The notes beneath the pieces were generated by a model. That model was not told where the DNA came from. It made no database searches and saw nothing but the letters and a program-made list of their open reading frames with translations. A program made the position numbers and the translations under genes. A stretch of DNA of 64,000 bases from Acholeplasmataceae bacterium (lineage in GTDB: Bacteria; Bacillota_I; Bacilli_A; Acholeplasmatales; Acholeplasmataceae), in assembly GCA_963667565.1 (NCBI GenBank), contig OY763415.1, positions 736,001 to 800,000 on the forward strand. Direction: 5' to 3'. Shown piece by piece: positions 15,429 to 53,210 of the stretch (the first letter of the stretch is position 1; each line of letters opens with the position of its first letter).

Positions 15429-15463
15429 AAAAAGCTCAAACATCAAAGTTTGAGCCTTTTTTT
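15429..15463. terminator. Bidirectional terminator ending the fibre operon and the ABC operon
   Basis: gctcaaac..gtttgagc hairpin with A tract before and T tract after. Confidence 0.75.
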
Positions 15464-18400: not shown

Positions 18401-21400
18401 TAAAGACTTGATTTGTCGCATCTACAGCATCCGTAGCCCATGTCAAATCGTAGACAGGTGTATTTCTTGAAGAAGAATCATAAGGTTGTGAATCATAGGT
18501 TGTAAGGTTATATCTACCCGTAGTAGCATATGGACCAATTTCAACCATTTGATCTCCAACTTTTTTATGTGTACCAACCCATGTGTATCCATCAAGTGCA
18601 TTATCACCTGTTAAAAGATTAGCTACTCTTCTTGCTCCAGTAACATATGAGTCTTCAACTTCAATATACCTTGAAACTGTCAATTGTTGATATGACTGTG
18701 ACCCAAGGACTGCAGCATTTGATGGTAGATAATAAGTTAGCATCTTGCGTTCTTGATCGATAACTGGATTTGAAAGTGTTAAACCAGATGCTAATACGTT
18801 ACCATTAACATCTGTTTGTACAATATCTAAATTATATATCGTCGTTGCAAAGCTGACTTTTATTTGGCGCATCTCACTATAGAGTTGATATGCAACAGTT
18901 GATTGTGTTGATGCATCACCAATCCATGAGGTATCTGCAACCGCACTGTCTAAATCGTATGGATCTAATCCTGATAAATCAAAATTGTCAGGAATAAAAA
19001 TACCATTATTAATACCTAAACTAGAAGATAATGCATAGATACCAGGGAAATCATATGTTGTATCTGCTTCAAGTTTATTTAAGATTGAATCGTTAACTTT
19101 AGATGCTGGAATATATTCAATATAATCTTTGATGTATTGATCAGTACCTGCATTTGCAGGTCTAGGTGATCTAAAAGGAAAGAGTTCATAAAACATCCCA
19201 TCATCTGTTTCTGAGACATCATAATATTTAATGACTTGTCCAATATATGATCCTACCCACCCAGAACCTGTATAAAAATAGGTAAATGGCTCTACTGAGT
19301 CATCGCTAGGATTTGTGGTTGCCATGTATTGCACCATGTTAACGAGTACAGTATTTGCATCATCAATACTTCCATTAAATATGGATTGCCAATTTGATGA
19401 TAGGGGTGGTGCACTAGCAAACATATTAATTTTTGCATCAAAATTCAAGAGATATCCAAAGTATATAGAATCAATTGGGTATTGTGTATTACCTGCAAAA
19501 GCCCAAGTACTCGTCCCTGTGTGAATTTTACCTACAACTGCACCGAATGCATATGGCAAAGTTTGCGGTGGAGTTGTAGACATGCTATATGTATACGCAT
19601 GTGTTAATGGATCATAACTTGTGACTTGTCTAATTTTTCCATAGTTAATAAGATTTGAGACATAAACTTCATCTGGATTGATTTTGTCAAATTTAGAATA
19701 ATACATGAATCCAAAAATACCTGCTGCCAAATAACGACTGTAAATATTACCATAGTTAATATTATTTACAACAGATAATATACCTAAACCTAAGATGCCT
19801 GCTGCTTTACTTCTTGTTTCATTTGTGATCGAATAACTTGATTCAGAAGTAAGATTATATGCATATACATCACCGTAGTTAATACTAAACATAATTTTAG
19901 AAAACTGATGATTTGATCCAGTTGATATATCATTACCATTTTCTAATTTATCATTTCTTACTGCAATACCTGCTGCATGTGCATATCCAAGTGTCGAATT
20001 GGATGCAACCTTAATATCACCATTGTTTGCAGCATCTCTTATTTGTGCATATTCAGAAATAAGGGCATAAACAATACCCGCTGCTTCCATTTGGTCATTT
20101 GCTGTTTGTGCATCATTGTAAACTTCAATATTACCTAAGTTAATAGCATTTGTTAAAATACTTTCATTATAAAGTATGATACCAGCAACTTTAACATGAC
20201 CATCAAAATTACCATTCACTAAAATGTTACCAGAATTTAGCATGGTATCAACCGTACCATCAACAGAATTAATATCTATTGATAATGGATCAATTTCTAA
20301 ATCGGTATAGATATCTTGATTTCTATTTGCATATCCCATACCACTTACATATAAGTCATATGCGATATGGTTACCGGCATCTTTTTCGATTGAGATATCT
20401 CCACCTTGATATCCATTTGTGACATAAAATCCTTCTGATGCTTCTAAGAATAAACCGTTAATGTAGAATTTCGCATTTGAAAGTGTACTTGATGTATTAT
20501 GATTCATATAAATTGAAATATCGTTTTCTTGTCTAAGATGGTTCAAACTCAAATGTGTACCATAGACATTAAAAGATAGATAAATGTTTTGGTTTACGAG
20601 TGTTTGTGATGTATAAAAATCAAGATCCCCTGATTGATAGCTTTGCTCAATTGTTAAATTCGTTTGACTAAGTGCTAAGACGTTAGCAGCAAAATAATCA
20701 ATAAAACTTAAATCAAGATTTTGATATGATAAATTAAAAACACCTTTAATTGTTCCGTTTGCTTGATATGTAATTAATCCAAAAGACAAATAAACATCGA
20801 TTTGATTAAGAATAGTTTCTGATAGTGTTGCTTGTGGTGTGAGCGTAATTTCTCCATGATTTGAAATACTTAAGAAATCAATATCATTTTCTTGATCTGT
20901 AACATATCCATATCCAGCAACATAAACATTTGATGGACCAAACATCTTCACATCAATATCACCATTTTGATAAATATAGGAAATACTTTGTGCTAAATCG
21001 TTTTGATATGCTATGATACCACCAACATAAATTTGATCAACTAAGCCAGAGACTTGTGTTAAGATATTTCCAGTATTGATGACTTTATCCATTGACTCTA
21101 TGTTTGCAAATCCAACAACACCTCCATAGTAGGTTGTATTTGTTGGTGTGTTTTGATATGAAAGTCCATGGATATCGATATCACTAATGACATGATCTAA
21201 TGTTAAATGTGTAGCATAGGAAATGATACCAGCAACATAATTTGTTGTCATTCTCTCATTATCATTAACATAAATATTTTCAATATCACCTGTAGCTGTT
21301 GATTGATAAATGCTTGATGAACCATAAGAAATAAGTCCTGATACAAAAAGATTACCCAAACTTTCTTGATCTGCTGTTAAGATCACATCAACATCAACAT

Positions 21401-22928
21401 GAACATCATAAATATAACTTTCATTTGATGCACCTGCAATACTAGATACAAAAATACGATCAACATTTTGTATAAGATTGATATCTGCTGTTATAATGGT
21501 CATTTGAATAAAATTAATTGATGATATTTGACCAAAAAGCGCTGAAAATAATGCGTAAGATGCATAATCACACACGAAACTTGCTTGACTGATGGTTAAA
21601 TTGATTATGCTGTAATGATCTTCACTTCCACCTAATCCTTGATGGTTATATAATGTATTCCCACTGATGACATTACTTGTAAAAATACCATCAAAACTTA
21701 CTTCTGCAGCAACAAATGCATCTCTTGAGACTTGTCTCATATCGATGTCTGCATTTAAAATATATGTTGATGATCTAAAAAATCCAGATAATGTCAACAG
21801 ATGATTCATATAAATAAGATCTGTTGCATCAGTAATATATAAACTTTGATTAATGACTTCTAATCCTTGTAAGATTGGATATGTTTTATCAATGGTTAAT
21901 TGTGCTGCCTGATAAGGGTCATTACTTAAATCAACATATGAATCTTGGAAATACCAAGTTGTTGTAAAAATTGATGGGTTTTGGAAATCTTGTGTATGAA
22001 GTGGCGTAGCATATAGACTGCTTGAATCAGTATCGAGTAATATATCTTGATCATAATAAAGATGATCCACATTCCCTGTATTTTGATACATCATTAAAGC
22101 TGAAGTCAAATTTTGAGTGACTGATTGCGATTTTATATATGGCGATGCTATATAACTATTTGATACAGTACCTTGATTGACAGATACCAATCCAGAAATG
22201 ATAAAATCACCCTCAGCATTAATGCCTGCAGATGCTTCTCTTGTATCAATATAGTAAACATTTTCAAGTAATCCTTCATTTAGACCAACAAATGTTGATA
22301 CATGGGTCATAAGACCTAAGTCTAATGCTTGGACAATGAGAGGATTTATAAGTCCAAAGTTTTTAATAACAGCCGTTGGTGATGTCATTGAAAACATTGA
22401 ATAATAGATAAGACCTGACATATATTGATTATATGCATTTTCTGTATTGACACTTCTAAAAATAAGATTGGTAATTTCATAACCTTGCCCATCAAATGTT
22501 CCCGTGAAAGGTTGTTGAAAACCGATAGGAATAAAAAGATTATTCATAGAAATTTTTAGAGCATCAAAATAATCAATATCATTACCTAAAACATAATCAA
22601 GTGATAAATAGTCTGATTGATATGAACCTTTCGCATCAACAGATAGTTGATATAAATCAAGTGCAGTTTCAATGACATAGATTTTATTTGTATCAATAGC
22701 ACCAGGATTATTACTAATGGTTTCATAAGGTTCATAGACACTAACATAGTTAACATTTTCTAAAGGAGAAACACCTATGTCTTGACCTACCCATGCACTT
22801 GACTCTTGATAATTAATCGCTGTTGCTTGACTAAAATCAAAAAAACTGCTTGCATAAAATACTGCAGTTGCTAGAAACAATAATAAGATTGACTTTTTAA
22901 ATATTGTTGCTATTTTTGATTTTTTCAT
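15462..22928 (-). CDS. Giant secreted adhesin-like protein (GLUG/beta-helix-like repeats; three C-terminal CBM5/12-like repeats)
   Basis: N-terminal signal; YVLGNDID..PIG..FTGTFDGQGYEITNL; many N.G.I..(G/A)GI repeats; C-terminal Y..GD.(V/F).Y....(W/Y) x3; no C-terminal anchor. Confidence 0.75.
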   Translation of the reverse strand: MKKSKIATIFKKSILLLFLATAVFYASSFFDFSQATAINYQESSAWVGQDIGVSPLENVNYVSVYEPYETISNNPGAIDTNKIYVIETALDLYQLSVDAKGSYQSDYLSLDYVLGNDIDYFDALKISMNNLFIPIGFQQPFTGTFDGQGYEITNLIFRSVNTENAYNQYMSGLIYYSMFSMTSPTAVIKNFGLINPLIVQALDLGLMTHVSTFVGLNEGLLENVYYIDTREASAGINAEGDFIISGLVSVNQGTVSNSYIASPYIKSQSVTQNLTSALMMYQNTGNVDHLYYDQDILLDTDSSSLYATPLHTQDFQNPSIFTTTWYFQDSYVDLSNDPYQAAQLTIDKTYPILQGLEVINQSLYITDATDLIYMNHLLTLSGFFRSSTYILNADIDMRQVSRDAFVAAEVSFDGIFTSNVISGNTLYNHQGLGGSEDHYSIINLTISQASFVCDYASYALFSALFGQISSINFIQMTIITADINLIQNVDRIFVSSIAGASNESYIYDVHVDVDVILTADQESLGNLFVSGLISYGSSSIYQSTATGDIENIYVNDNERMTTNYVAGIISYATHLTLDHVISDIDIHGLSYQNTPTNTTYYGGVVGFANIESMDKVINTGNILTQVSGLVDQIYVGGIIAYQNDLAQSISYIYQNGDIDVKMFGPSNVYVAGYGYVTDQENDIDFLSISNHGEITLTPQATLSETILNQIDVYLSFGLITYQANGTIKGVFNLSYQNLDLSFIDYFAANVLALSQTNLTIEQSYQSGDLDFYTSQTLVNQNIYLSFNVYGTHLSLNHLRQENDISIYMNHNTSSTLSNAKFYINGLFLEASEGFYVTNGYQGGDISIEKDAGNHIAYDLYVSGMGYANRNQDIYTDLEIDPLSIDINSVDGTVDTMLNSGNILVNGNFDGHVKVAGIILYNESILTNAINLGNIEVYNDAQTANDQMEAAGIVYALISEYAQIRDAANNGDIKVASNSTLGYAHAAGIAVRNDKLENGNDISTGSNHQFSKIMFSINYGDVYAYNLTSESSYSITNETRSKAAGILGLGILSVVNNINYGNIYSRYLAAGIFGFMYYSKFDKINPDEVYVSNLINYGKIRQVTSYDPLTHAYTYSMSTTPPQTLPYAFGAVVGKIHTGTSTWAFAGNTQYPIDSIYFGYLLNFDAKINMFASAPPLSSNWQSIFNGSIDDANTVLVNMVQYMATTNPSDDSVEPFTYFYTGSGWVGSYIGQVIKYYDVSETDDGMFYELFPFRSPRPANAGTDQYIKDYIEYIPASKVNDSILNKLEADTTYDFPGIYALSSSLGINNGIFIPDNFDLSGLDPYDLDSAVADTSWIGDASTQSTVAYQLYSEMRQIKVSFATTIYNLDIVQTDVNGNVLASGLTLSNPVIDQERKMLTYYLPSNAAVLGSQSYQQLTVSRYIEVEDSYVTGARRVANLLTGDNALDGYTWVGTHKKVGDQMVEIGPYATTGRYNLTTYDSQPYDSSSRNTPVYDLTWATDAVDATNQVFTHEPHVKTTFLWWTFWDATGYRVNRTTANYGYGAYEAFSLSGYPTLYQYVGPSTEPVTYVLSANQSGVFVYPESGVYFKADTQDGSYTISDTASLQYNGTDDTSLITIPRSYGVYDSMYDSQGTYVDSVEDHYGSVRVYSQEYNQADTSTYQDYEIRIIRTANEDITDINSLLVNGVASLPQYYNVNNLTALNDLSYDTTGQNGIIRISYETYNVSNQFQLLPYIEVFDNNTGVKVYTSLYKLSQGEVITLNDFNNDTGQWGYGEATVVFEANEDFASGDYYIELTLLSGEIFRIHFSKQESANADVLQMTYQDEVIDISSNSYTSYIDYGMYYLSEQAATHVVNFTNLSSISHVYYDEVANELPSYLDGLVISNFAEISYVTFAVSLVDGYRHQYTIAYHLTAENGSTNVFNHYIIESALSQNPSAVYKNGGSLSLPVTNVNVLYQESPTIRVEYDFLNTYFATEDILTIDSSFTPLVAGEDALEGIDYFTNPISDIGYEIDLNQSTAKGSYFYQLSYDQVASVNGQTLTWHYTFNELQVTKLRNDNSHLKNVLFASDSVFDEVLDAFVTIIDIDEVTPTEYLAYFDEENPTSRIISVLPTSGIDYGTYESYQSYWIIGQVQETDLTAYMPTFYIPDGSSIYRVTDEANIDYTYQSTNLSADFTDFGTGESLNYIHYRIYAEDYNDYPTHYTDYYIAVQDATNNIKFDITVENDTQDLIEQVFVKVNIYQYASDFQGEMQYDDILVSMGLFSYYNQSSDSYDNNQFETSMYGFYVVYVDLPEGYSFEVEFEQSYIQDLVYLESSRIPRRYYVTIHIIEETPNSPSWGYQALFYYEAPAEPLDINHTYTDGDRFTYDGTTWIVISSSYTYDSNNPPGTGAWQGLQDASGIYSSVSTYEIGDIVYYIDRYYVALASYASYNNPISGLGDSWNEVSENWLSYNLYTTGDIVLYNGTYYISTASWNKGYQPDITTWAWQIYS

Positions 22929-22935
22929 TGAGCAC

Positions 22936-23622
22936 CTACACGGTAAAGAAACTGTTTTCTATACCCCATTTTTCATAAACTCTATTTGCCTGAACAATGT
23001 CAAATATCATATCAAAATATAAATAACATTCTTCATATAGTACTGCATTAGATCTTACTGGATATTGATTGCCACCATCAATGACATGAATCGTGACATC
23101 ATTAATACTTTGATTAACGATATCTGGATAATATACATAACCCTCTTGATCAAATAGTGGATTGCCAAAACTTGAATCAAACTTTAAATCTGAAAAAGGA
23201 TAGTATGGTAATTCTGTTTGATGATGATAAAGCGATTGAATGACTGGTGGAATTGGATTTTCTTCATTTTGATTGACATAATATGTTCCAAGTTCCCATT
23301 CCTGCTCAATTTTAAATCTGAATCTTGATGCAACAATGGGTTTTATTTTGAAATAAATATCTAAATTTTCAATAAAGTTTGTTGCTTGATCATCATAAGC
23401 ATTTACGATGACAACACCCTTATCCTGATCATAATATGGACTGTTATATGTCACAATTTGTCCATTAAAATAGACTAGCATTTCAACCTCAAAATCACCA
23501 GTAGATATGATGATGCCATGATCTTCAGAGACTTGAAAATATGCATAAGTTGTTACCATTAAAACAACAAACATCGAAATAAAGATAATGATAGATTTAA
23601 TCAAAAGTGATTTATGTTTCAT
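22936..23622 (-). CDS. SipW-dependent-type signal peptide protein (TasA/CalY-like minor subunit)
   Basis: Hydrophobic leader ending TTYA-YF. Confidence 0.72.
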   Translation of the reverse strand: MKHKSLLIKSIIIFISMFVVLMVTTYAYFQVSEDHGIIISTGDFEVEMLVYFNGQIVTYNSPYYDQDKGVVIVNAYDDQATNFIENLDIYFKIKPIVASRFRFKIEQEWELGTYYVNQNEENPIPPVIQSLYHHQTELPYYPFSDLKFDSSFGNPLFDQEGYVYYPDIVNQSINDVTIHVIDGGNQYPVRSNAVLYEECYLYFDMIFDIVQANRVYEKWGIENSFFTV

Positions 23623-24272
23623 CAGTTAAAATCTCCTTTGTCATTAATCATTAATATATTTAATTGCATGTTAAATACGACATCTAAATAAGCACTAGGA
23701 TCATCAAGTCCATCATAATCACCCCAAGCAACTATTTGAAAAGTCAGTTGATCTGCTTGAGATAAAGTATAACTGCTTATTTGATCTAAAACAGCTTGAT
23801 TTTGTACTGATATTGCATTTAATTGATCTTCTTTTGTCGGCATACCAGAAATGACTTGGTTAATATATGTTTCATAATCTGATGTTATAGGTGTACTTCC
23901 TATATTTAATCCTTCAAGAATGATGATATAAATAAGTCCATTTTCTGAGGGTTCATCAAGTGTGATTTGAAGTTTAGTCATTGGTGATTGATCATCTAAT
24001 ACAATATCAAAACGATGAGATGATGCCATGATGTTTAACATATGATTTTGTTGATTGATAAAATCATTTTGATAATCAACAAATGCTAAATCATCAAATG
24101 TAATTTGAGATGTTGCTGTTTGCTCATCTTTATATAGAGAAATAGACAAAACACCTGCATCAAACTGAGCAAGTGATTTTTGTTCTACGTATGTGAACCA
24201 TGCGTAAGTGACTGATACAATTGAAGTGACTAATAATAAGATGGATAATATCGTAATGGCATATCTTCTCAT
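23622..24272 (-). CDS. SipW-dependent-type signal peptide protein
   Basis: Leader ending VTYA-WFT; start MRRY at 24272 after GGAGGG. Confidence 0.75.
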   Translation of the reverse strand: MRRYAITILSILLLVTSIVSVTYAWFTYVEQKSLAQFDAGVLSISLYKDEQTATSQITFDDLAFVDYQNDFINQQNHMLNIMASSHRFDIVLDDQSPMTKLQITLDEPSENGLIYIIILEGLNIGSTPITSDYETYINQVISGMPTKEDQLNAISVQNQAVLDQISSYTLSQADQLTFQIVAWGDYDGLDDPSAYLDVVFNMQLNILMINDKGDFN

Positions 24273-24285
24273 ATTTCCCTCCAAT

Positions 24286-24392
24286 TAAAACAAAATAGCC
24301 GTTGATCTATATAATAGATGCAACTGGCTATCCGATTAAGGACCCTATAGCTTTGCGTCCCTAGATTACTCTAGGTTTGCCAAATGAGTAAG
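24286..24392 (-). ncRNA. Cyclic di-GMP-I (GEMM) riboswitch with overlapping terminator (operon-internal)
   Basis: Minus strand GGCAAACCTAGA-GTAA-TCTAGGGACGCAAAGCTATAGGGTCC..GGATAGCCAGTTGC, then ATAGCC..GGCTAT-TTTGTTTT. Confidence 0.92.
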
Positions 24393-24396
24393 TATG

Positions 24397-25044
24397 TTAT
24401 TGTTTTAATTTCTCTTCTTCGATGATTTGTTTTCTCATCTCTAATTTTAAATCTTCTAATTCTTTTTCATGTGCTTTTAATATATCTGTCTGTTTTTCTT
24501 TTTGATATGTTTTCATTAAATCAATAATTTCTGAAACCAATAGAATTGTTATAACGATAACGAGAGCAAAAAATATATAACTTCTATTAGATTGAACCAA
24601 TAGTGATATTGGTTTTAGAAATGTGATTTTTTCAACATATTGACCAACTAAATTATCTGATGTGATATATGCTTGAATTCCACTTTGGTCAGTTTGTGAT
24701 TCATTATCACCTTGAGTAATAAATCCTAAATCATTTTGATCTACAATTCTATGGACGATTAATATATCTAATCCATCTGCAGTTTTACCCTGATAAACGA
24801 TGACATCACCAATCGTTACATCTTGAATGTTAGCTTTATGCATGATATACATATCATTAACATTTAGTGAGTCTTCTTCTTCACCAATCATAGAATCAGT
24901 AGGTACTACACCTAATGCATATCCAAAGATAAACACAGGTTGATTATTCTTTATTGAGAGTGTTGCAGATATCATAATGCCAATCACTAAGATGACAGTG
25001 ATGAAACCTAAGATACTTGCAACCATTTTAATTATTTTTTTCAT
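24397..25044 (-). CDS. sipW: Signal peptidase I, SipW (ER/archaeal-type) family
   Basis: TM; catalytic Ser in TDSM; GDVIVY; catalytic His in IVHRI; TQGDN; C-terminal TM + coiled coil. Confidence 0.88.
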   Translation of the reverse strand: MKKIIKMVASILGFITVILVIGIMISATLSIKNNQPVFIFGYALGVVPTDSMIGEEEDSLNVNDMYIMHKANIQDVTIGDVIVYQGKTADGLDILIVHRIVDQNDLGFITQGDNESQTDQSGIQAYITSDNLVGQYVEKITFLKPISLLVQSNRSYIFFALVIVITILLVSEIIDLMKTYQKEKQTDILKAHEKELEDLKLEMRKQIIEEEKLKQ

Positions 25045-25052
25045 ATATGCTC

Positions 25053-25799
25053 CTAAGCAGATAATACCATGTTCACTGTTTGAATTTTTAGAGATTGACC
25101 CATAAAAATATTTGAATTTGTGTAAGGATCACCAAATGGATCAACACCATAAACAAATGGATCAAAATAGATGTCAAAGTATATCACTGTTGATGAAAAG
25201 TCATCAATATTGAGTGGAGCATCATTAATCAATTCATAATATGCATGAACTTCACCATCAAAAAAATCATTTTTATAATCAAGTGCATACGTATCTTTTA
25301 TGTCAGATGTCTCAACACCAGATATATTCATAAATGATACTTGAGTAACTTCATAACTAAACGCATTTTGTATCTTATTAACACTTGTTGCATAACCAAA
25401 AGAATTCACATTTGAAAATGAAAGTGACACATATCCTTGAGTAGTTCCTGTGTTATGAATCTTAATCGCAAAACTAAAACGTTCACCAGGTGCCACATAC
25501 CCATCAATTAAAGTCGTCTCAGTTGGATTTGGTATATATAAATATTTATCATACTCTAAAGCATCTGTCGTTGTATTATCAACCAGTGTTAGTGAAGTGC
25601 TTCCTTCATGCGTAGGATCATTATAAACATAAAACTCATATGCTGCTTCAATACCTGAAATTTGTGATATGAGATTTCCTTTATTGAGGTTTGTTACTGA
25701 AAACCATGCATAAGTTACTGTTGTAAGTAATAAAACAATAATGAGGACATAAATAGTTGTGAGCATGAATAACTTGTTTCTTCGATTTACTTTTTCCAT
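25053..25799 (-). CDS. SipW-dependent-type signal peptide protein
   Basis: Leader ending VTYA-WFS; APGE..F.I.I.N.G TasA/CalY-like motif. Confidence 0.78.
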   Translation of the reverse strand: MEKVNRRNKLFMLTTIYVLIIVLLLTTVTYAWFSVTNLNKGNLISQISGIEAAYEFYVYNDPTHEGSTSLTLVDNTTTDALEYDKYLYIPNPTETTLIDGYVAPGERFSFAIKIHNTGTTQGYVSLSFSNVNSFGYATSVNKIQNAFSYEVTQVSFMNISGVETSDIKDTYALDYKNDFFDGEVHAYYELINDAPLNIDDFSSTVIYFDIYFDPFVYGVDPFGDPYTNSNIFMGQSLKIQTVNMVLSA

Positions 25800-25817: not shown

Positions 25818-27668
25818 TTATCCTTTTTGACTTAATTTTTTTTCATGACTTTCCTTTAACTTTTGTTGTTGTTTTATAATGCGCTGATCAGATTGTTTTT
25901 TAATTTTTGCTTCTTGATTTTCAAGTCTTTGTTTTTCAAGTTTCAATTGTGTTTTAACTTTTTGATTAAGTCGTATTTGATCTCTTTTTTGTTTTGCTTT
26001 AATCTTTTTGATTTCTTGATCATAAAGCATTTTAGCCTTTTTCTTTTCAGCAGCAATAATCTTAATCTCTTCTGCTTTAACTTTTTTACGTGTCGCTGCT
26101 ATTTTCTCAGTGACTTTTTTATGTTCTTCACTCATGAGTTTCTTTTGAGCTGATACATAATCAAGATATGTTTTTAATGCTTCCTGATTTTCAGTCAAAT
26201 GTTGTCTTTCAATCTTAATTTTTTCTTCTACCTTAGCAAGTTCTGCCTCTTCTCTAATACGTTTTTTAGATTCTTTAGCAAAAGCTTTATCTAAATTTTC
26301 AATCTCTTTCATTAATCTTCGTTCAAGTCTAATTGATTGGTTATAATCAACTTCTTTAGTTTCTCTAATGATTCTTGCGATATGAAGTTTATCTTTTGTT
26401 TTAAGAATTTGATCTTCAGTCGTTTCTTTTATAAGTGATTTAAATAAATAATCATCATTTAGAACATGATCATTTAAATCAAAATAAGATTCATAGAGTG
26501 CATTTGTAATATTGATGGTATCTCTTAACGCTTTTTTTAATCCAACTTCATACGAAGAAGACTCATCTACATAAGCTTCGATTGAATCTTTAAATGTTTT
26601 CTTATTTTGTTCTAAGTAGTATTGATTAATCTTTGTATCTTCAAGTTCAATTTGCTGTGCATTATCAACTATTGTATCTAAATGCTTTTTAACAATTTTA
26701 GGACTTTTTTTATGATACTCACGTTCATCTAAATATTGATAATGATCTTCAAGTGCTTTTTGATTACCATAAATGGTAGTAAAAGTTTGAAGTGCGAGTT
26801 GATAAATATTTTTCATATAATAACTATCAAATGAAAGATTTTTTTCGTTGACTTCAGTATCAAAATCTAGTGTATTGTACTTATCTAAAAATAACCATAA
26901 TGTGTAGCAATTCTTATAATCAATGTTTTTTGTAATAATAGATGTTTGCATAATTGGAGGATAAACAGGTTTAGCATTTTTAAGTTCATCCATAAATTGT
27001 GTTTGTTTTAAGCTATTGATCTGTTTCAATAAATATTCTATGCGTTTTAGCAATGCATGATTTTCTTTATTAATACTTTCATCTTCTACATCTTCTTCAA
27101 TCACGACATTGAGATTAAGTTTAACTCTAGAATCTTGAATTTGGAATGCTGACTTTAAGTCAAAATGTTTTTTATCAAATGATTCAACATTTTTTTTAAC
27201 AATTTGGTATCTACGATCAATAAAGTCATATAATCGATCAACTAAAGTTTTAAAAAATCTATTCTCATAAATCGCATATTCAATTTCTGCATTTGTAACT
27301 AATATTCTTTTAGGGACAACATTTTGATTACGATATTCTTTAATTAAATGTGTGTTTGCTGCTAAATGTCTAACAGAATCACTATTCACACGCTTTGCTT
27401 TTTCAATCGCTGTAACTTCTTGTTCATAACGCAATCCTGATTTAGGTGAATTTGCTATTTTAAATAAACTCGGGAAAAATGATTCAATCGTCTGAATCCA
27501 TTCCTCATGAAATTTCTTAATTTCTGTAATGCTCTTTTGATAAATTTCATTATCTCCATCAAGAAGTGCAGAATAAAAATAGTTTGGAAAATCCTGATTT
27601 AACTCAATGTCATAATATGCATCATTGATGGCTTTATGAAATTTTCTTAAATCAGTTAATTTTTTCAT
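25818..27668 (-). CDS. DUF2357 (McrC-like N-terminal) protein with long K/E coiled-coil C-terminus, no visible nuclease
   Basis: Y.IYENRF.K.L and N.DY..CY.LW motifs; directly after McrB-like gene. Confidence 0.75.
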   Translation of the reverse strand: MKKLTDLRKFHKAINDAYYDIELNQDFPNYFYSALLDGDNEIYQKSITEIKKFHEEWIQTIESFFPSLFKIANSPKSGLRYEQEVTAIEKAKRVNSDSVRHLAANTHLIKEYRNQNVVPKRILVTNAEIEYAIYENRFFKTLVDRLYDFIDRRYQIVKKNVESFDKKHFDLKSAFQIQDSRVKLNLNVVIEEDVEDESINKENHALLKRIEYLLKQINSLKQTQFMDELKNAKPVYPPIMQTSIITKNIDYKNCYTLWLFLDKYNTLDFDTEVNEKNLSFDSYYMKNIYQLALQTFTTIYGNQKALEDHYQYLDEREYHKKSPKIVKKHLDTIVDNAQQIELEDTKINQYYLEQNKKTFKDSIEAYVDESSSYEVGLKKALRDTINITNALYESYFDLNDHVLNDDYLFKSLIKETTEDQILKTKDKLHIARIIRETKEVDYNQSIRLERRLMKEIENLDKAFAKESKKRIREEAELAKVEEKIKIERQHLTENQEALKTYLDYVSAQKKLMSEEHKKVTEKIAATRKKVKAEEIKIIAAEKKKAKMLYDQEIKKIKAKQKRDQIRLNQKVKTQLKLEKQRLENQEAKIKKQSDQRIIKQQQKLKESHEKKLSQKG

Positions 27669-27677
27669 ACAAAACCT

Positions 27678-29222
27678 CTAAAATTGTTTTTTAATTGTTG
27701 TTAAATAGCTTTGGCATTCTACAAATCCATTTTTACCAAATAAGCGATCTAGTAAAACTGATAATTCATTAATTTCATTTTGTAAAAAAGGTAGATTTAA
27801 ACTTTCGAATTTTCTTAATATTTTTCTTGCTACCATATAATCCAACGCTTCAGTTTCACTACCACCACAAGCAACGTAAACAGGAACAAATGCTCTGATT
27901 TGTTTCATGATACGATTACCGAATGTGACTTTAAAATTTTCAGTTATGAACTTATCTAATTTTTCTAAGTTTTGAAGTGATTTTAATGTAAGAGGATGTT
28001 CTTTTAAAGCTAATCTAAATAATTCATTTAAATAATCATTTGAAATATTAACAGGTTCTGTTAAAGGTGCATCAATAAACTCTGATTTTGTATTAATTTC
28101 AATAGGTGTTGCACGGTCATAAACTTTATCTGTAATGGTAAATGTTGAATCATCTTTATTAGCTGTTCCAATAAACCATACATTTTGAGGTAATAAAATC
28201 TTACCTTTTTGAATATGAATTGGATCATTTTCTTGCGTATCAGGAACAACATCAATAAACCATTGTTCTGGATCTGGCATTTCAAGTAACGATAGAAACT
28301 CTGCAAAGTAGTATTCAACTCTCGCTAAGTTCATTTCATCTAAAACGATGAAATTAGGATCACTACGATATGTCGTCTCATAAATCGATTCTAAAAATTC
28401 AGTTTCATTGAATTTTTTAGTAAACTCATTTAAGTATCCCATCATTTCAGCGCGATCACGCCATGAAGGTTGAACGGCAATAATATGAGAATCATGTCCA
28501 AAAAACTTACCCATTGCATAAGGTAGAGAAGTTTTCCCTGTCCCTGAAATCCCTTCAAGAATCATTGTCTTTGAAGATGCCATACCTGCAAAAAATGCAG
28601 AGATAATTTTACGATTATAGAATAGACCAAGTTGAGATGCTGAAAAGTTAATAAAACGTGTAACGATTTCATTTAAATTAAGCATATCCTCTTCGCGCAT
28701 AAATATTTGAGTCACTTGATTTTCATACTCTCTATCTACACGTTTAAGCTTAACAAATCTAGAAGGTTCTTCAATTGCTTGCTTAGCTTTATCTTCTTCT
28801 CTATCTTCATCCTCATAGGATTCACCAGATGGGTTGATACCTAAGTTTGACACTTTAAGTGCCAATATTTTATTTCGTTCATCGACAAGTTCAACAGTCT
28901 TTTGATTAAGAAATGCGATTTCTTCTAATAATTCATCTTTTTCAATTTCTCTTCCAATAAATCGTACATATTTGCTAATCCATTGATAAAGTTTTAATAC
29001 TAAAAAAGTGATTAAAGCTAGGTTGACGATCAATATGACAAATCCAATGATCCAATCTATCACAGTAAATTCTTCAGATGCAATTGAAAATCGTTGGAAA
29101 TATTGAATAAAATCAGCAACAAAGAAATTTGCAATCGCTTCGAAAATTTGTTTGAAAAATTCTCCGATATTAGCAAAAAATTGTCTGATAAATTCAATAT
29201 AGAATCTTGCAAATTCTACCAT
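27678..29222 (-). CDS. Membrane-anchored McrB-family AAA+ NTPase
   Basis: N-terminal amphipathic + TM + coiled coil; Walker A GISGTGKT; VQPSW.D; Walker B VLDEMNLAR.EYYF; GTANKDDST (McrB NxxD-type); KVYDRA. Confidence 0.88.
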   Translation of the reverse strand: MVEFARFYIEFIRQFFANIGEFFKQIFEAIANFFVADFIQYFQRFSIASEEFTVIDWIIGFVILIVNLALITFLVLKLYQWISKYVRFIGREIEKDELLEEIAFLNQKTVELVDERNKILALKVSNLGINPSGESYEDEDREEDKAKQAIEEPSRFVKLKRVDREYENQVTQIFMREEDMLNLNEIVTRFINFSASQLGLFYNRKIISAFFAGMASSKTMILEGISGTGKTSLPYAMGKFFGHDSHIIAVQPSWRDRAEMMGYLNEFTKKFNETEFLESIYETTYRSDPNFIVLDEMNLARVEYYFAEFLSLLEMPDPEQWFIDVVPDTQENDPIHIQKGKILLPQNVWFIGTANKDDSTFTITDKVYDRATPIEINTKSEFIDAPLTEPVNISNDYLNELFRLALKEHPLTLKSLQNLEKLDKFITENFKVTFGNRIMKQIRAFVPVYVACGGSETEALDYMVARKILRKFESLNLPFLQNEINELSVLLDRLFGKNGFVECQSYLTTIKKQF

Positions 29223-29244: not shown

Positions 29245-29958
29245 TTATGACTTGTTTTTTTCGTTTTCTAATTCTTTAAGTATTTCGGCACGCATTTTTT
29301 CTTTTTCTGCTTCTAAACTTAATTTTGCATTTTCTTTTTCTAAAGCAAATTTTTCTTCTAATTTGTCTTTGTTGATACCAATAAGATTACGTGCTAACAT
29401 GACACCTTCAAAAGCTAAGAGTAATACAACTGGCAAAATGATGAATACTGCAAATCCTGTTGGTGTTTGTAAATAATCTAATGCATTTCCAAAACCTACA
29501 AGTTTATCGCCATGATAAATCGCAAGTACATCTTCAATATTAACTGGTTGATCAGGAGATGTGTTATTGTTGTTAGATATGTAATTATAATCAGCTTGTG
29601 TAATCAGATAACCTTCTGCTGCATTGATTTCTACAATTCTATGGGTATTAAACTCATGAATCGTTGTATCAAAATATGTAACAACATCACCTACTTGTAA
29701 CAAAGCTCTACTTTGATCATTAAGCATCGTCACAAATAATAAGTCACCTTTTTGAAAAGAATCTTCTAAATCACCATACATCGAATTAGATTGTACAGCG
29801 AGCATACCTTGATTAAATATATTTGCAATATTATCTTCTCTTTTGACCTTCATGTTGGCAAATGAGAAAACTAATAAGAAAACAATGACAACGTAGAAAA
29901 TAACATTTAAAACGATGCTCATTGCTTTTTTTAATTTTGATTGTTCTTTAGTCTTCAT
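29245..29958 (-). CDS. sipW: Signal peptidase I, SipW family (second copy)
   Basis: TM; VQSNSM; KGDL; GDVVTY; THRIV; C-terminal TM + coiled coil. Confidence 0.85.
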   Translation of the reverse strand: MKTKEQSKLKKAMSIVLNVIFYVVIVFLLVFSFANMKVKREDNIANIFNQGMLAVQSNSMYGDLEDSFQKGDLLFVTMLNDQSRALLQVGDVVTYFDTTIHEFNTHRIVEINAAEGYLITQADYNYISNNNNTSPDQPVNIEDVLAIYHGDKLVGFGNALDYLQTPTGFAVFIILPVVLLLAFEGVMLARNLIGINKDKLEEKFALEKENAKLSLEAEKEKMRAEILKELENEKNKS

Positions 29959-30061: not shown

Positions 30062-30979
30062 TTAAACACCTTGGAATGTAAATGCTGATGATACGATTTG
30101 TGAAAGAATTGAGTTATAAGTATTAGCATCCCAACCTTCTAACCAAATACGTACTGTTACTTGACCATAATAAGTTGCACCAAAATCTTGAACTTCACCA
30201 GAAACATCAACCATATCAACAACTGGTTGACCTGCACCAAGTGTAGTCATTGTTGATAAAGTAGTAACTGTGTCTGCGCCAAATGGAAGTGCATTATTTT
30301 TTGCATAGTAGTAATTCATTGAACCATTGTCACCAACACCACCATTAGATAAGTCGCCACCAACACCTAGTACAACATTAGAACCACCAACTGGTTTTTC
30401 ATAAGCAACTGTATAATCACCATAAGTAATATCACTTACCATTGCAATTCTCATACCATCAGATGCATCAACTGAAATTTGTGCACCAGCTAATCTTGCA
30501 GTACCACTAGCATCAGTAAATGGAACATCTACTGTCCAAGTATATGCTGAAGAACTTAAACTAATAGTTGTCCAGTTAATTGATTGTGCTGTATCTGATC
30601 TAAAGTTAAGTGGTAATTCAATGTAACCAGAAGTTGTGTCTGTCATTGCTAACGCACCTAATGTTTTAAAGTTAACACCGTCAACTGTAGTTACATGGTT
30701 AAAGATTTGTGTATTACCATATGTAGCAATTAAATATGCTTCTACTGTATCTGTTGTTAATGTTGTAACCCAGTTTGCATTTTGTGGATCTGCATATACT
30801 GAACTATGGTTACCTAAAGCAACTTCAATCCCGCTATCAGCGACGATTTGTGCTTCAAAAGCTTGAACTGTTGACGTATTAGTCAATGTGAACCACGCAA
30901 ATGTTGTAGTTCCAAGTGCGAACACTGTTAATACAACCGCAATAATTGATAAAACTAACTTTCTCGAAATTTTACTCAT
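30062..30979 (-). CDS. SipW-dependent-type signal peptide protein, probable major fibre subunit
   Basis: Leader ending TTFA-WFT; T/G/V-rich beta protein; VRIWLEGWD; strong RBS AAGGAG; stem-loop at its 3' end. Confidence 0.8.
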   Translation of the reverse strand: MSKISRKLVLSIIAVVLTVFALGTTTFAWFTLTNTSTVQAFEAQIVADSGIEVALGNHSSVYADPQNANWVTTLTTDTVEAYLIATYGNTQIFNHVTTVDGVNFKTLGALAMTDTTSGYIELPLNFRSDTAQSINWTTISLSSSAYTWTVDVPFTDASGTARLAGAQISVDASDGMRIAMVSDITYGDYTVAYEKPVGGSNVVLGVGGDLSNGGVGDNGSMNYYYAKNNALPFGADTVTTLSTMTTLGAGQPVVDMVDVSGEVQDFGATYYGQVTVRIWLEGWDANTYNSILSQIVSSAFTFQGV

Positions 30980-31045: not shown

Positions 31046-32008
31046 CTATTCAGCTGATCTAAGTAATTTAAATTGAAGCTGAATCTTTAAGCGATCATTA
31101 TTAATCGCATCGAATGCATCTGCATCCCATCCTTCAACCCATAAAGTAATTCTTAATTTACCTTGATAGATTGATAAACCCTCTTGTGTTTGTAAACCTG
31201 TGTCCTGAAGTATTGCAACCATTGATGTGTCATCTAATGCTTCATATGGATTTCTTGGATTTGGTAATGTTAAATCATATGTAACTTCTTGATTAAGTGT
31301 CGTAAGCGGTATGAATCTTTGTGTTCTTTGAGTGAAATAACTGTAAGCACCATAACTTAATCCATATCCTCTTGATGGATCACCTGACGGATCAAATATC
31401 CATGAGAGTAATTCATCTTCACTTCGTTGATCTAAGGTGTTTGTGTCATCATTTAATTCTACAAACGATAATCTTACTGCATCACTTGCATAATAGATGC
31501 CCTCATCACCATCATGTACCAAATCACCTGCTGCGTTATAAACGAATGTTTCATTAGAACGCCAATTCACACCTCTTGATACAACATATGTTCCTACTGC
31601 TGATGTATCAAATGCGACATTTTGACTTTGATTATTAATCACATAAACTTGATGTAAAGTCTCAGTTGTTCTAAACCAAACATCAAATTGTAAATAATCT
31701 TTGTCAGGATTAATATCTGTAGTATCTCTTAATCCACCTGCTTCAAAATGTTTTCCATCAATACTTGTTATCTCATTTAATGTGATATTTTCAAATAAGG
31801 ATTCAAGTTCATCTGAAGTTAAGTTGTTAGAAAAATTAATACCATCAAGTGAAATTTCTAACTCTTCACCTGAAGTTGCTGATAATGATAACCCTTCTAT
31901 ATTATTAACAGTTGATAATGAAATCCACGCGAATGTGACAGTACCAAATGTAATAATTAAAATAATCATTGTTAACACTGATAAATGAATCTTATTTGCC
32001 ATCTTCAT
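31046..32008 (-). CDS. SipW-dependent-type signal peptide protein, paralog of 30062-30979
   Basis: VTFA-WIS; shares T(S/T).DG..F, FR, D..R and LWVEGWD motifs. Confidence 0.8.
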   Translation of the reverse strand: MKMANKIHLSVLTMIILIITFGTVTFAWISLSTVNNIEGLSLSATSGEELEISLDGINFSNNLTSDELESLFENITLNEITSIDGKHFEAGGLRDTTDINPDKDYLQFDVWFRTTETLHQVYVINNQSQNVAFDTSAVGTYVVSRGVNWRSNETFVYNAAGDLVHDGDEGIYYASDAVRLSFVELNDDTNTLDQRSEDELLSWIFDPSGDPSRGYGLSYGAYSYFTQRTQRFIPLTTLNQEVTYDLTLPNPRNPYEALDDTSMVAILQDTGLQTQEGLSIYQGKLRITLWVEGWDADAFDAINNDRLKIQLQFKLLRSAE

Positions 32009-32016
32009 AAGTACAC

Positions 32017-32724
32017 CTACTCATTAATGGAAAAACTCATTTGCATTTTAATGCTTCCACCTGCGATGCTATCTGTTGTATCAGGATCTTCACCTTCAAT
32101 CCACATAATGATTGAAAACTTTCTGATTTGCTGTGGAATAAATCTTGTGATGGTTTGTCTTGTGACTGTATAATCATCAAGGAATAATGATGTCTCTGGT
32201 AAATCTACTTGATATTCTGGTAAGTTACCTAATTCATCTGCTTCATCTCTTTTTTGATAGATTGTTTGATTGCCATCATCTATAATTAAGACTCTAATCG
32301 CTTGATCTAAGTCATTAATCACTTGAGTAATTCTAATACTATATGTGATGTCTACTGTTTCTAATCCATTATTTTCTAAGTAAAACGTATATGCCATATA
32401 GTCAATATCTGGATCAATATAGTTTCCATCTGTTTCTTCAACTTGATCAATTTGAATCCAATTATATGTGATATCTTGTGCACCTTCAACTGGATTTGTC
32501 ATAAGTCTAGAACTAGTCACATCAAATGATTTAGTTTCAGATAAGACAATACCTCGGTTAAATGCATCATAATCAACGCTCATCACGAAGTTTCCTGTAT
32601 CTTGTCCATAGAATGTTACAACTAAGAAAACAACGCTTAAGAAGAGTGTGACTGCTAAGCCTAGTGTGTATATTCTTCTTTTCTTTTTGATTAAGTTGGC
32701 TTGCATGACGGTAGATAGTCTCAT
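32017..32724 (-). CDS. Membrane-anchored subunit-like protein (first gene of operon)
   Basis: KKKRR + TM lacking the TxA-W/F cleavage site; C-terminal MWIEGED resembles paralog WxEGxD; start MRLS after AAGGGGTGA. Confidence 0.7.
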   Translation of the reverse strand: MRLSTVMQANLIKKKRRIYTLGLAVTLFLSVVFLVVTFYGQDTGNFVMSVDYDAFNRGIVLSETKSFDVTSSRLMTNPVEGAQDITYNWIQIDQVEETDGNYIDPDIDYMAYTFYLENNGLETVDITYSIRITQVINDLDQAIRVLIIDDGNQTIYQKRDEADELGNLPEYQVDLPETSLFLDDYTVTRQTITRFIPQQIRKFSIIMWIEGEDPDTTDSIAGGSIKMQMSFSINE

Positions 32725-32737
32725 CAAATCACCCCTT

Positions 32738-32842
32738 AAAAAATAAAAACCAGCTATCATCGAATAAAATGATAACTGGCTACCTTTAACTAGGCCCTAT
32801 AGCTTTGCGTCCTATGATTCCTCATAGTTTGCCTTTGACATA
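32738..32842 (-). ncRNA. Cyclic di-GMP-I-class riboswitch + terminator, tandem unit 3 (gene-proximal)
   Basis: GGCAAACTATGA-GGAA-TCATAGGACGCAAAGCTATAGGGCCT..AGGTAGCCAGTTATC; terminator CCAGTTATCAT..ATGATAGCTGG-TTTTT. Confidence 0.93.
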
Positions 32843-32858
32843 CACTGATTAAATTATG

Positions 32859-32961
32859 AAAAATAAAAAGCCAGCATCATCATATAAATGATAACTGGCT
32901 ACCTTTAACTAGGCCCTATAGCTTTGCGTCCTATGGTTCCCCATAGTTTGCCTTTAACATA
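32859..32961 (-). ncRNA. Cyclic di-GMP-I-class riboswitch + terminator, tandem unit 2
   Basis: Same aptamer with compensatory P2 change (CTATGG/CCATAG); terminator AGCCAG..CTGGCT-TTTT. Confidence 0.93.
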
Positions 32962-32987
32962 TGTATATATTTAGTTGATGAAGGTAC

Positions 32988-33089
32988 AAAAAAAGCCAGC
33001 ATCATCATAATTAATGACAACTGGCTACCTTTAACTAGGCCCTATAGCTTTGCGTCCTATGGTTCCCCATAGTTTGCCTTTTTACATTT
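32988..33089 (-). ncRNA. Cyclic di-GMP-I-class riboswitch + terminator, tandem unit 1 (promoter-proximal)
   Basis: Same aptamer; terminator AGCCAG..CTGGC-TTTTTTT. Confidence 0.93.
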
Positions 33090-33097
33090 GTATCTAT

Positions 33098-33126
33098 ATT
33101 TTATGACAAGTTTATCTAATTGTCAA
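33098..33126 (-). promoter_or_regulatory. Sigma70-type promoter of fibre operon, overlapped by an inverted repeat
   Basis: TTGACA(33126-33121)-17nt-TAAAAT(33103-33098); TGACAA-N10-TTGTCA at 33104-33125. Confidence 0.8.
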
Positions 33127-33151: not shown

Positions 33152-34582
33152 TTAGGATAAAACATTGTGCCATGCTTCAGTTCCTAAGTAACCACGTAGT
33201 GATTCTGCAGAAATAGGTTTAGAAAAATAATAACCTTGTTGGATATCTATACCATAATGTATTGCTTTATCCATCATTTCTTTATTTTCTATCATTTCAC
33301 AAATGATTAAAGTATCATGTTGTTCAGCAAAATCAACAAGTAATTTAGCAAATTTAGATTTCATATAATCTTCATCTTCTTTTAAAAACTCATTGTCTAA
33401 TTTGATAATGTCAACTTGAAGATCTGTAACTTTTGATAATGTTTGATAATCTAGTCCAAAACCATCAATGGCAATTTCGAAACCCATTTGCTTAAGTGTC
33501 TTAAGATTCTTAAGTATAGTTTCTTGTTTTTCAAAGATTGCAAATTCAATAATTTCTAGAATAATATTGTTTGCTTGTGCTCTATATTTCTTAAGTACTT
33601 TTTGCATATCCATAGCAATAGAATCACTCATAAGTTGTTTAGGCCCAATATTCATTGAGAATTTGATTTTATCATTTGGAAAATATTGAGCAATTTCTTG
33701 TTGCGTTTTAATAATGGTTTCTAATCCCCATAATGTAATCCAATGAATATCACCTGATTGTTCCATAATACCTAAAAACTTAAATGGAGATAAAAGACCA
33801 TGTTCTGGATGATTCCATCTAATAAGTGATTCGACACCATAGATTTGTTTTGTAACTACATTAATCATTGGATGATAGAACAATTGAAATTCTTTATGCG
33901 TAATCGCATGTTTAATTTGATAGTAATACTCAACGTGCTCTCCACCTTGTTCACTCATTTCTTCTGAGTAAATACGGATATTATTTCCACCATTTCTCTT
34001 AATAATATATGTTGCAAGTAACAATGAATTAATTAAATCCTTAATACTATGCCCGTGTGCGGGATAGAACGCGACAGCAATAGATGCAGTTGATTTAATA
34101 TCTGTATCACCAAATAATCTAATCGGTTTTTGAATCGCTTGTTTAATCTTATGTGCAAATGTAACAACTTCACTGCGATCATAATCATGATTGAAGAAAA
34201 TTAAGAATTCATCATTTTGATATCTCGCAATCTTAACACCTCTAGGTAATGCTCGTTCCATATTTTTAGCAATTTTATGAATAATACTTTCACTTTCTTC
34301 TTTACCGAATGCATTTATGAAGTCAGTAAATTTATCTAAATCGATATAAACTACGCTAAATTGGATATCTTTTCCTGTTTTAGTTAAGTATGAAGTAATT
34401 AAGTTGTTCATCTCATTTTTAGAAAGTACACCTTCAATAGAGAGTGCCTTCTCATCTTTAATTTTTTTTCTTTCTTTAAAAAATGAAAATGCTAAGAAAT
34501 ATACAACAACAATAATTAAAGCGATTAAAAGAAACGTTAAAATGATTGCTGATGCATCATTTAAGTATATTGGAAACATCAT
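33152..34582 (-). CDS. TM-GGDEF-EAL protein, both domains degenerate (candidate c-di-GMP receptor)
   Basis: GGDEF site reads YQNDEF; EAL site reads ESLIRW; loop 6 reads IDGFGLDY instead of DDFGTGY. Confidence 0.85.
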   Translation of the reverse strand: MMFPIYLNDASAIILTFLLIALIIVVVYFLAFSFFKERKKIKDEKALSIEGVLSKNEMNNLITSYLTKTGKDIQFSVVYIDLDKFTDFINAFGKEESESIIHKIAKNMERALPRGVKIARYQNDEFLIFFNHDYDRSEVVTFAHKIKQAIQKPIRLFGDTDIKSTASIAVAFYPAHGHSIKDLINSLLLATYIIKRNGGNNIRIYSEEMSEQGGEHVEYYYQIKHAITHKEFQLFYHPMINVVTKQIYGVESLIRWNHPEHGLLSPFKFLGIMEQSGDIHWITLWGLETIIKTQQEIAQYFPNDKIKFSMNIGPKQLMSDSIAMDMQKVLKKYRAQANNIILEIIEFAIFEKQETILKNLKTLKQMGFEIAIDGFGLDYQTLSKVTDLQVDIIKLDNEFLKEDEDYMKSKFAKLLVDFAEQHDTLIICEMIENKEMMDKAIHYGIDIQQGYYFSKPISAESLRGYLGTEAWHNVLS

Positions 34583-44821: not shown

Positions 44822-44896
44822 TGGTGGAGTTACTGGGGATTGAACCCAGGACCCCTTGCACGTCAAGCAAGTGCTCTCCCGCTGAGCTATAACTCC
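44822..44896 (-). tRNA. tRNA-Val(GAC)
   Basis: Cloverleaf GGAGTTA..TAACTCC-ACCA; anticodon arm CTTGC-TTGACGT-GCAAG; TTCAATC T-loop. Confidence 0.96.
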
Positions 44897-53054: not shown

Positions 53055-53143
53055 AAAAAAAAATTCTACAACAAAAAAATTGTTGTAGAAGTCATTAGCT
53101 TTACGCGGTTCTAGCTTTCGCTAAGGGAGACGTTCATTCCCTA
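53055..53143 (-). ncRNA. Fluoride (crcB) riboswitch with overlapping terminator
   Basis: Minus strand GGGAATGAACGTCTCCC..AACCGCGTAAAGCTAATGACTTCT; terminator TTCTACAACA..TGTTGTAGAA-T8; TTGACA-16-TATAAT at 53177-53150. Confidence 0.85.
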
Positions 53144-53210
53144 TGTCTTATTATATGTAAATTCATCTAAATGTCAATCATATAACTAAATTATATAAAT
53201 CTTTATACAT

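Follow-up and report, generated by a model that had tools for sequence, protein, structure and literature searches.

What does a gene pair related to a DNA restriction system do between the gene of a signal peptidase and that of a secreted, subunit-like protein? The question is raised by a window of 64,000 nt from an Acholeplasmataceae bacterium (GCA_963667565.1, contig OY763415.1, positions 736,001-800,000, forward strand). Here, a membrane-anchored McrB-like AAA+ nucleoside triphosphatase (NTPase) and its McrC-like DUF2357 partner lie within an operon on the minus strand; the open reading frames (ORFs) of both were confirmed, at 27678-29222 and 25818-27668, respectively. We lean slightly towards a non-defence membrane motor, in which the McrBC chassis would be reused to drive or gate the biogenesis of surface fibres processed by SipW-type signal peptidases, as the gene context suggests. 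That the pair has been exapted away from DNA restriction, as the original prediction held, is well supported, since no nuclease or effector domain was found, the pairs lie mostly beside sipW and subunit genes, and defence genes are sporadic neighbours.

The locus is a real, well-conserved feature and a further member of a named class that is apparently unstudied. The original prediction overstated its novelty in this respect, as the arrangement had already been named CoCoPALM by Bell et al. 2024 (PMC11090510), in one paragraph whose text defers the study to a later paper. Our literature search, with paywalled papers and bioRxiv supplements outside its reach, found no follow-up or functional study of CoCoPALM, and, among the matches listed, no paper other than the eLife article and its preprint uses the name.

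The AAA+ protein and its DUF2357 partner

The AAA+ protein carries intact Walker A (GISGTGKT) and Walker B (DEMN) motifs, in agreement with the original prediction, and K230, T231, D295, E296, N355, D357, D358 and R370 are invariant in all 76 aligned homologues. The predicted TANxDxST motif is present as GTANKDDST, but it represents the NxD variant (N355-x-D357, followed by D358) and not the canonical McrB NxxD. E. coli McrB was the only PDB sequence match (E 0.0048 for the single sequence, 2.6e-5 for the profile). As Foldseek ranks MCM and dynein level with McrB for the AAA+ model, the protein is placed with McrB by sequence and not by fold alone. After the P-loop, an invariant Ser232 replaces the base-stacking aromatic residue of McrB, and a preference for GTP is therefore not to be assumed. 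According to a preprint, some McrB homologues are nucleotide-promiscuous, without discrimination (bioRxiv 10.64898/2026.08.31.748284).

The N-terminus begins with an amphipathic helix (residues ~1-36, hydrophobic moment 0.52-0.65), followed by one transmembrane (TM) segment that peaks at residues 58-76 (Kyte-Doolittle 2.99). In the AlphaFold model the first 126 residues are two helices, 2-49 and 54-126, the latter running on from the TM segment, and no DNA-recognition domain of the McrB type was found there. The original description of an amphipathic, TM and coiled-coil segment in place of a DNA reader thus stands. Residues K95, L98, E101, L105 and E115 of this stalk are invariant. Among 16 window genes compared, the AAA+ gene is the best conserved in 8 of 12 loci and second to that of a 476-aa GGDEF-EAL protein in 2 more, a level of conservation that may be more like that of a core machine than of a fast-evolving restriction gene.

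The partner bears DUF2357 at residues 55-160 (Pfam, E 3.6e-11), and its profile matches a nuclease-bearing DUF2357 protein (E 1.1e-4). YENR, the core of the YENRF motif noted originally, and R153 are invariant in 90 of 90 homologues, as is R137. Residues 51-267 of its model align with both solved McrC structures, 6ut5_G (Z 7.3, 137 residues, root-mean-square deviation 3.9) and 6hz4_M (Z 7.0), with Z scores in the range that the tool calls “possibly common”; the other VIA-align matches are mostly generic helical bundles and coiled coils. A Foldseek search of the PDB with the full model returned nothing at E ≤0.001, with E. coli McrC at rank 35.

Beyond this finger domain, the model (mean predicted local distance difference test score 79) has no β-strand after residue 277 and a single continuous helix at 417-615; the tail contains 22% Lys and 14% Glu. 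No PD..(D/E)xK pattern follows residue 300, Pfam assigns no nuclease family to the partner, and an Atlas search with residues 270-616 gave no usable named cluster. The C-terminal ~200 residues are thus a Lys/Glu coiled coil lacking a recognisable PD-(D/E)XK nuclease, as first described, and model, Pfam and Atlas searches likewise found no effector domain in the partner. Because the partner profile matched only coiled coils among PDB sequences, and the same search with a nuclease-bearing DUF2357 control gave no match, TgMcrC Arg263 and EcMcrC Lys157 could not be mapped onto the partner. K140, a candidate counterpart suggested by a motif, was rejected because it is kept in just 36 of 90 homologues.

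The tail is the least conserved part of the partner (25% identity to the window protein, against 54% in the finger) and varies greatly in length, with partners of 360-940 aa among the loci. Spacers often vary in this way, which would suit a cell-biological scaffold: an FtsB-like TM/coiled-coil NTPase and a long coiled coil would localise a secretion site at the pole or septum, or form a cytoskeleton-like spacer in wall-less cells, and would not act on subunits directly. The text of Bell et al. (PMC11090510) does liken the CoCoPALM anchor to FtsB, but the similarity in the supplement is weak (HHpred E 1.2). In addition, the pair was not found in many related genomes and therefore does not serve a general division function. 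We consider the scaffold very improbable.

Relatives of the pair and their neighbours

Species-representative genomes were scanned and yielded 125 relatives; the analysis used the best 80, with 48-98% identity, which come from Acholeplasmataceae, other Bacilli and Clostridia metagenome-assembled genomes. SipW lies at most three genes away in 76 of these 80 loci; the other four are three short contigs and one locus of a giant-protein type. A sipW gene is directly upstream of the AAA+ gene in 61 of the 71 loci that have an upstream gene, and DUF2357 is directly downstream in 69 of the 80. The homologous pairs are therefore not mostly found in defence islands. Whole-genome searches of the relatives set detected the partner in 38 of its 61 genomes, including 9/9 of the genus. 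Across the phylum, the AAA+ domain (E ≤1e-20) occurs in 89 of 399 genomes and was not found in three large families (0/54, 0/89 and 0/48), two genomes being unscored; in the Clostridia-centred phylum it occurs in 12 of 401 genomes (E ≤1e-30), only two of these matches being close. Cultured carriers of the module include Peloplasma aerotolerans and Paracholeplasma vituli.

A wider set of 70 membrane-clade loci was hand-picked to span the score range and is not a random sample. It comprises 42 loci with sipW, 17 without sipW beside very large (≥1000 aa) surface-type proteins, and 11 with neither, eight of which form a 12-TM subclass. The representatives scanned of these large proteins contain cadherin-like, BspA leucine-rich repeat or transglutaminase domains. 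The module is thus not tied to SipW alone: it has paralogues with no sipW in view, beside giant surface proteins. In a quick tree of 118 of the 162 AAA+ domains, with close loci randomly subsampled to 35 and with long branches, all 111 rows with a predicted TM segment fall on one side of a branch (Shimodaira-Hasegawa-like approximate likelihood ratio test 100), away from the 7 TM-less rows. The sipW label requires six changes on this tree, so sipW was gained or lost several times. One locus, L189, was left out of the tallies as an antisense ORF had been called over its AAA+ gene, and the partner of L091 is probably hidden likewise; L112 and L113 have no AAA+.

Several groups of relatives have layouts of their own. 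The same genome holds a second, membrane McrBC-like locus without sipW (G000:C1:233445-249778; L111, L112). It encodes a degenerate AAA+ without Walker motifs, a TM-AAA+, a DUF2357-coiled coil protein and a second TM-AAA+, followed by surface proteins of 1174 and 2207 aa with repeats and transglutaminase-like domains. This AAA-DUF-AAA layout recurs in several other genomes. The AAA+ domains at 235145-236248 and 238468-239571 differ at 3 of 1104 bases while their N-termini differ, and identical domain pairs occur in three other genomes (L119, L124, L125), which suggests ongoing gene conversion. A subclass with a four-TM NTPase of ~610 aa and a three-TM SipW (L181, L183-L188, L191-L200) has a conserved downstream ABC ATPase, an 11-TM permease and two surface proteins, and would thus be coupled to a putative exporter. 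In a sipW-less subclass (L114-L117, L120-L122, L219, L220, L105), the order is giant cadherin-like surface protein, short GGDEF-EAL, TM-AAA+, DUF2357.

With Pfam, no nuclease family was found in any of the 84 membrane-clade partners examined (51 of them match DUF2357, counted by eye), nor in 13 further ones. TM-less relatives served as positive controls: PDDEXK_7 is present in 8 of 10 from the second phylum and 2 of 7 from the first, although Pfam is blind to some partners, as the controls L204, L205, L207 and L208 matched no family. The original prediction had named a nuclease or toxic effector domain as evidence against itself, and these searches found none in the window partner or its relatives.

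These results bear on a membrane-linked defence module, in which the fibres would be phage receptors or infection sensors and the pair would trigger membrane disruption, fibre shedding or dormancy. McrBC ancestry and a match of the AAA+ domain to the PADLOC candidate defence model PDC-M26A are in line with it, as is a subclass of ~900-aa McrB-like NTPases with 11-13 predicted TM segments and no sipW (L127-L130, L211-L214). Here, 2 of 8 loci adjoin DRT3 or BREX genes and two partners have weak C-terminal zinc-ribbon matches; this distant 12-TM subclass may be a distinct, possibly defensive system. But no effector domain was found, and among 171 non-core neighbours, with each recurring cluster represented by one protein, 13 match PADLOC at E ≤1e-10, three of them as housekeeping cross-hits and none as a fixed partner; among neighbours of the TM-less controls, 6 of 31 match. 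In the window operon, PADLOC matches 0 of 11 other proteins, and Pfam and PADLOC scans of the operon proteins revealed no HEPN or other nuclease. The apparent c-di-GMP control of the operon and the near-core presence of the pair in several families also argue against defence, which we regard as unlikely.

Operon layout, secreted proteins and cyclic di-GMP control

On the minus strand, the gene order is two membrane GGDEF-EAL genes, a 391-bp leader, s1-s3, sipW1, AAA+, DUF2357, s4, sipW2, s5, s6 and the gene for a 2488-aa surface protein (Table 1). The pair sits between a sipW and a subunit gene, with gaps of 22, 9 and 18 bp and Shine-Dalgarno-like sequences, in keeping with the short gaps and normal ribosome-binding sites described before. 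Its GC content is 0.284, against 0.313 for both operon and genome, and the only strong direct repeats at 14-38 kb of the window are riboswitch copies, so that no mobile-element scar is apparent, as reported originally. A recent mobile insertion was rejected on GC content, repeats and conserved synteny, and a pseudogene on the invariant motifs and the strongest conservation in the operon. One RNA run (8% of words) yielded a few short contigs on the operon, which does not amount to demonstrated transcription. Elsewhere, the window holds a fluoride riboswitch (53079-53150, minus strand) and a tRNA gene (44825-44896, minus strand). P0053 and P0140 both have homologues listed under a single transcript of the eukaryote Anaeramoeba ignava, which probably stems from a bacterium associated with it.

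Table 1. Features of the operon and its upstream region (positions in the window; aa, amino acids).
Feature	Position	Strand	Description
AAA+	27678..29222	-	Membrane-anchored McrB-like NTPase of 514 aa; an amphipathic helix, a single TM and a long helix precede an acidic linker and the AAA+ domain (NxD signature)
DUF2357 partner	25818..27668	-	McrC-like, 616 aa; DUF2357 finger domain joined by a helical connector to a coiled-coil helix of ~200 residues; no nuclease found
sipW1	29245..29958	-	SipW-type signal peptidase 1, 237 aa; invariant Ser59 and His106; two TMs and a charged tail at the C-terminus
sipW2	24397..25044	-	SipW-type signal peptidase 2, 215 aa; Ser-Met and His-Arg motifs, two TMs, charged tail
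s3	30062..30979	-	Secreted subunit-like, 305 aa; TFAWF SipW-type motif; weak camelysin/TasA look-alike
s2	31046..32008	-	Secreted subunit-like, 320 aa; TFAWI motif; paralogue of s3
s1	32017..32760	-	First operon gene, ORF of 247 aa; hydrophobic stretch at the N-terminus; grouped with s2 and s3 by clustering; no AW/YF motif
s4	25053..25799	-	Secreted subunit-like, 248 aa; TYAWF motif
s5	23622..24284	-	Secreted subunit-like, 220 aa; TYAWF motif; weak TIGR04088 match (E 0.055)
s6	22936..23622	-	Secreted subunit-like, 228 aa; TYAYF motif
Giant surface protein	15462..22928	-	2488 aa; N-terminal hydrophobic segment; weak C-terminal CBM_5_12 match (E 0.005, below cut-off)
Leader riboswitches	32768..33088	-	Three tandem c-di-GMP-I aptamers, each overlapping a terminator-like hairpin; putative ON switches
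Internal riboswitch	24316..24391	-	Fourth c-di-GMP-I riboswitch, between sipW2 and s5
Candidate promoter	33098..33126	-	Sigma-70-like consensus (11/12), consensus match only; just upstream of first riboswitch
Short GGDEF-EAL	33152..34582	-	Membrane protein, 476 aa; GGDEF and DDFG motifs degenerate; possible c-di-GMP receptor
Long GGDEF-EAL	34579..37158	-	Membrane protein, 859 aa; EAL and DDFG intact but GGDEF degenerate; likely phosphodiesterase

Both flanking peptidases match the SipW models NF046067 and TIGR02228. The catalytic S59 and H106 of SipW1 are invariant in 58 of 58 homologues. Of the 65 upstream peptidases among the relatives, 64 show the S-x-SM pattern and 56 a strict His pattern; of the 65 downstream ones, all show the former and 49 the latter. 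As the catalytic residues are kept, SipA-like dead peptidases were rejected. A charged tail follows the second TM segment in 52 of 65 upstream and 43 of 65 downstream peptidases. In the SipW1 tail, E218, R223, L227 and E229 are at least 90% conserved, which, together with the conserved AAA+ stalk, is compatible with a binding surface. The pair may dock onto the SipW tails, as was originally suggested. A complex prediction of AAA+ residues 1-130 with SipW1, each with its own alignment, gave a score of 0.00 in each of two runs, which does not speak for such docking or against it. Separately, three tandem SipW-like genes lie at ~1146000-1149000 of the same genome (L113), with no AAA+ in the 16 kb viewed.

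Five of the six small secreted genes encode the SipW-type signal motif. TIGR04088 matches 3 of 45 s3 homologues, and the nearest named Atlas cluster of s3 is PF12389 at 0.86, carried by 26% of the cluster members, a weak look-alike. The labels ‘subunit’ and ‘TasA-like’ are thus backed by the signal motif and one weak look-alike match, but not by a match in fold. On these grounds it is moderately supported that the secreted proteins would form TasA-like fibres.

Four cyclic di-GMP (c-di-GMP) riboswitches, overlooked in the original prediction, were identified by Rfam as c-di-GMP-I aptamers, three in tandem in the leader and one between sipW2 and s5. Every aptamer overlaps with a strong hairpin, behind which the sequence is U-rich (z -3.9 to -6.9). 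The best-scoring promoter consensus is located 10 bases ahead of the first aptamer, on its upstream side. The hairpins suggest that the riboswitches are ON switches and that the operon is under c-di-GMP control. Such riboswitches occur in 5 of 6 close homologous loci and in just 2 of 8 more distant or paralogous ones; double or triple tandem copies were also seen at L033, L040 and L060.

GGDEF-EAL proteins of the short type (420-545 aa) are found repeatedly, at 57 loci if the window is counted. A GG[D/E]EF motif is present in 2 of the 59 proteins of this type, and an N-terminal TM segment in 56. This raises the possibility of a regulatory switch. The NTPase and its finger/coiled-coil activator would signal together with the degenerate, single-TM GGDEF-EAL protein, sense c-di-GMP or the membrane state, and gate SipW activity, adhesin retention or operon expression. 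The logic is analogous to that of LapD/LapG. In line with this, the 476-aa GGDEF-EAL protein is about as conserved as the AAA+ protein in close relatives, the sipW-less subclass keeps the giant surface protein and short GGDEF-EAL genes in order before the pair, and the second locus of the genome ends in transglutaminase-domain surface proteins. However, no GGDEF-EAL was found in the 7-16 kb viewed for most of the ~610-aa four-TM class and for all loci of family f16, and we consider the switch doubtful. The full conservation of the hydrolytic motifs would fit a motor and a switch alike.

Known systems and a motor for surface fibres

The window pair shares the AAA+ core and a McrC finger-like domain with canonical McrBC (E. 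coli, T. gammatolerans). In contrast to the DNA-binding domain, PD-(D/E)XK nuclease, NxxD and base-stacking aromatic of McrBC, it lacks DNA reader and nuclease and has NxD and Ser. CoCoNuT systems (Bell et al. 2024) resemble it in their NxD GTPase, coiled coils and McrC homologue that sometimes lacks a nuclease. Yet the text of that paper states that whenever a CoCoNuT lacks the nuclease of McrC, HEPN or another nuclease is encoded close by (PMC11090510), whereas none was detected in the window operon, whose AAA+ protein is membrane-anchored. The locus therefore belongs to neither canonical McrBC nor CoCoNuT. Among the relatives, L222 resembles a type II/III CoCoNuT: its NxD McrB (827 aa) is TM-less and has a DUF2357 partner, and a UPF1-like helicase is encoded upstream.

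All four CoCoPALM features examined were found: an NxD McrB-like GTPase-type domain, its fusion to TM and coiled-coil helices, adjacent genes of the signal peptidase family, and coiled coils on the McrC as well as the McrB homologue. This assignment is by features and not by placement in one clade with RHC33375.1, the reference protein of the paper. The peptidase is described there as SipA-like, a pilus assembly factor, whereas those of the window match SipW models and keep Ser and His. Secreted subunits, riboswitches, GGDEF-EAL proteins, nuclease loss in the clade and sipW-less subclasses are not mentioned in those of its text passages and tables that were examined, though its figure supplement may show some of these. 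Active-type SipW peptidases, riboswitch control, a nuclease survey with controls and the sipW-less subclasses thus appear to be new beyond the naming.

The operon also resembles the fibre operons tapA-sipW-tasA of Bacillus and SipW-BsaA of C. perfringens, which, in the accounts available, likewise combine SipW-type peptidases with T-x-A-W/Y-F secreted proteins. It differs in having a pair of peptidases, both with charged tails in the cytoplasm, in addition to six subunit-like genes and a giant surface protein. To our knowledge, neither of these operons has an AAA+ motor.

How might such a motor work? In McrBC, as described in the text of Niu et al. 2020 (PMC7680126), the AAA+ protein forms a hexamer and the McrC finger enters its pore, stimulating one active site at a time, for which a stepwise rotation was proposed. 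As YENR and R153 are invariant, we infer that the coupling of finger to ring survives here. In the proposed mechanism, high c-di-GMP would turn the operon on and the AAA+ protein would form a hexameric ring on the inner face of the membrane. The coiled coil of the partner would then be an output arm of ~30 nm (200 residues at ~0.15 nm each), moved by hydrolysis and acting on partners at the membrane. Candidates are the SipW tails, pre-subunits held in the membrane and the giant surface protein. This action would drive or gate how fibre subunits are processed, ordered or released. A role in fibre secretion, assembly or remodelling, as originally proposed, may be envisaged. More specifically, a membrane-tethered rotary or stepwise NTPase could power the assembly, extrusion or retraction of SipW-processed TasA-like fibres and, in paralogous loci, display or shed giant adhesins; we put this forward tentatively, as one possibility.

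Several observations weigh against a motor of this kind. All functional evidence is guilt by association. The catalytic Lys/Arg of McrC has no mapped counterpart on the partner, and the AAA+ domain matches PDC-M26A (E 6.7e-44). Six of the best 80 loci have an AAA+ gene with neither DUF2357 directly after it nor a second sipW; the assemblies of all six hold a second operon with DUF2357 and a second sipW. No sipW is in view at 28 of the 70 hand-picked loci, and a SipW partner in cis is therefore not obligatory. The subunits matched no TasA in PDB or Pfam, the Atlas look-alike being the only link. We know of no motor for TasA fibre assembly. Finally, these fibres are reported, in the accounts available, to assemble by donor-strand exchange.

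The locus is complete on a single contig, with intact peptidases, riboswitches and cultured relatives, which makes the question directly testable. If the motor is real, a defence motor would have been domesticated for a housekeeping job at the cell surface, the reverse of the usual direction, and fibres of a class believed to self-assemble would gain a motor. An energy-driven surface-appendage machine, switched on by tandem c-di-GMP riboswitches, would then exist in wall-less and related low-GC bacteria.

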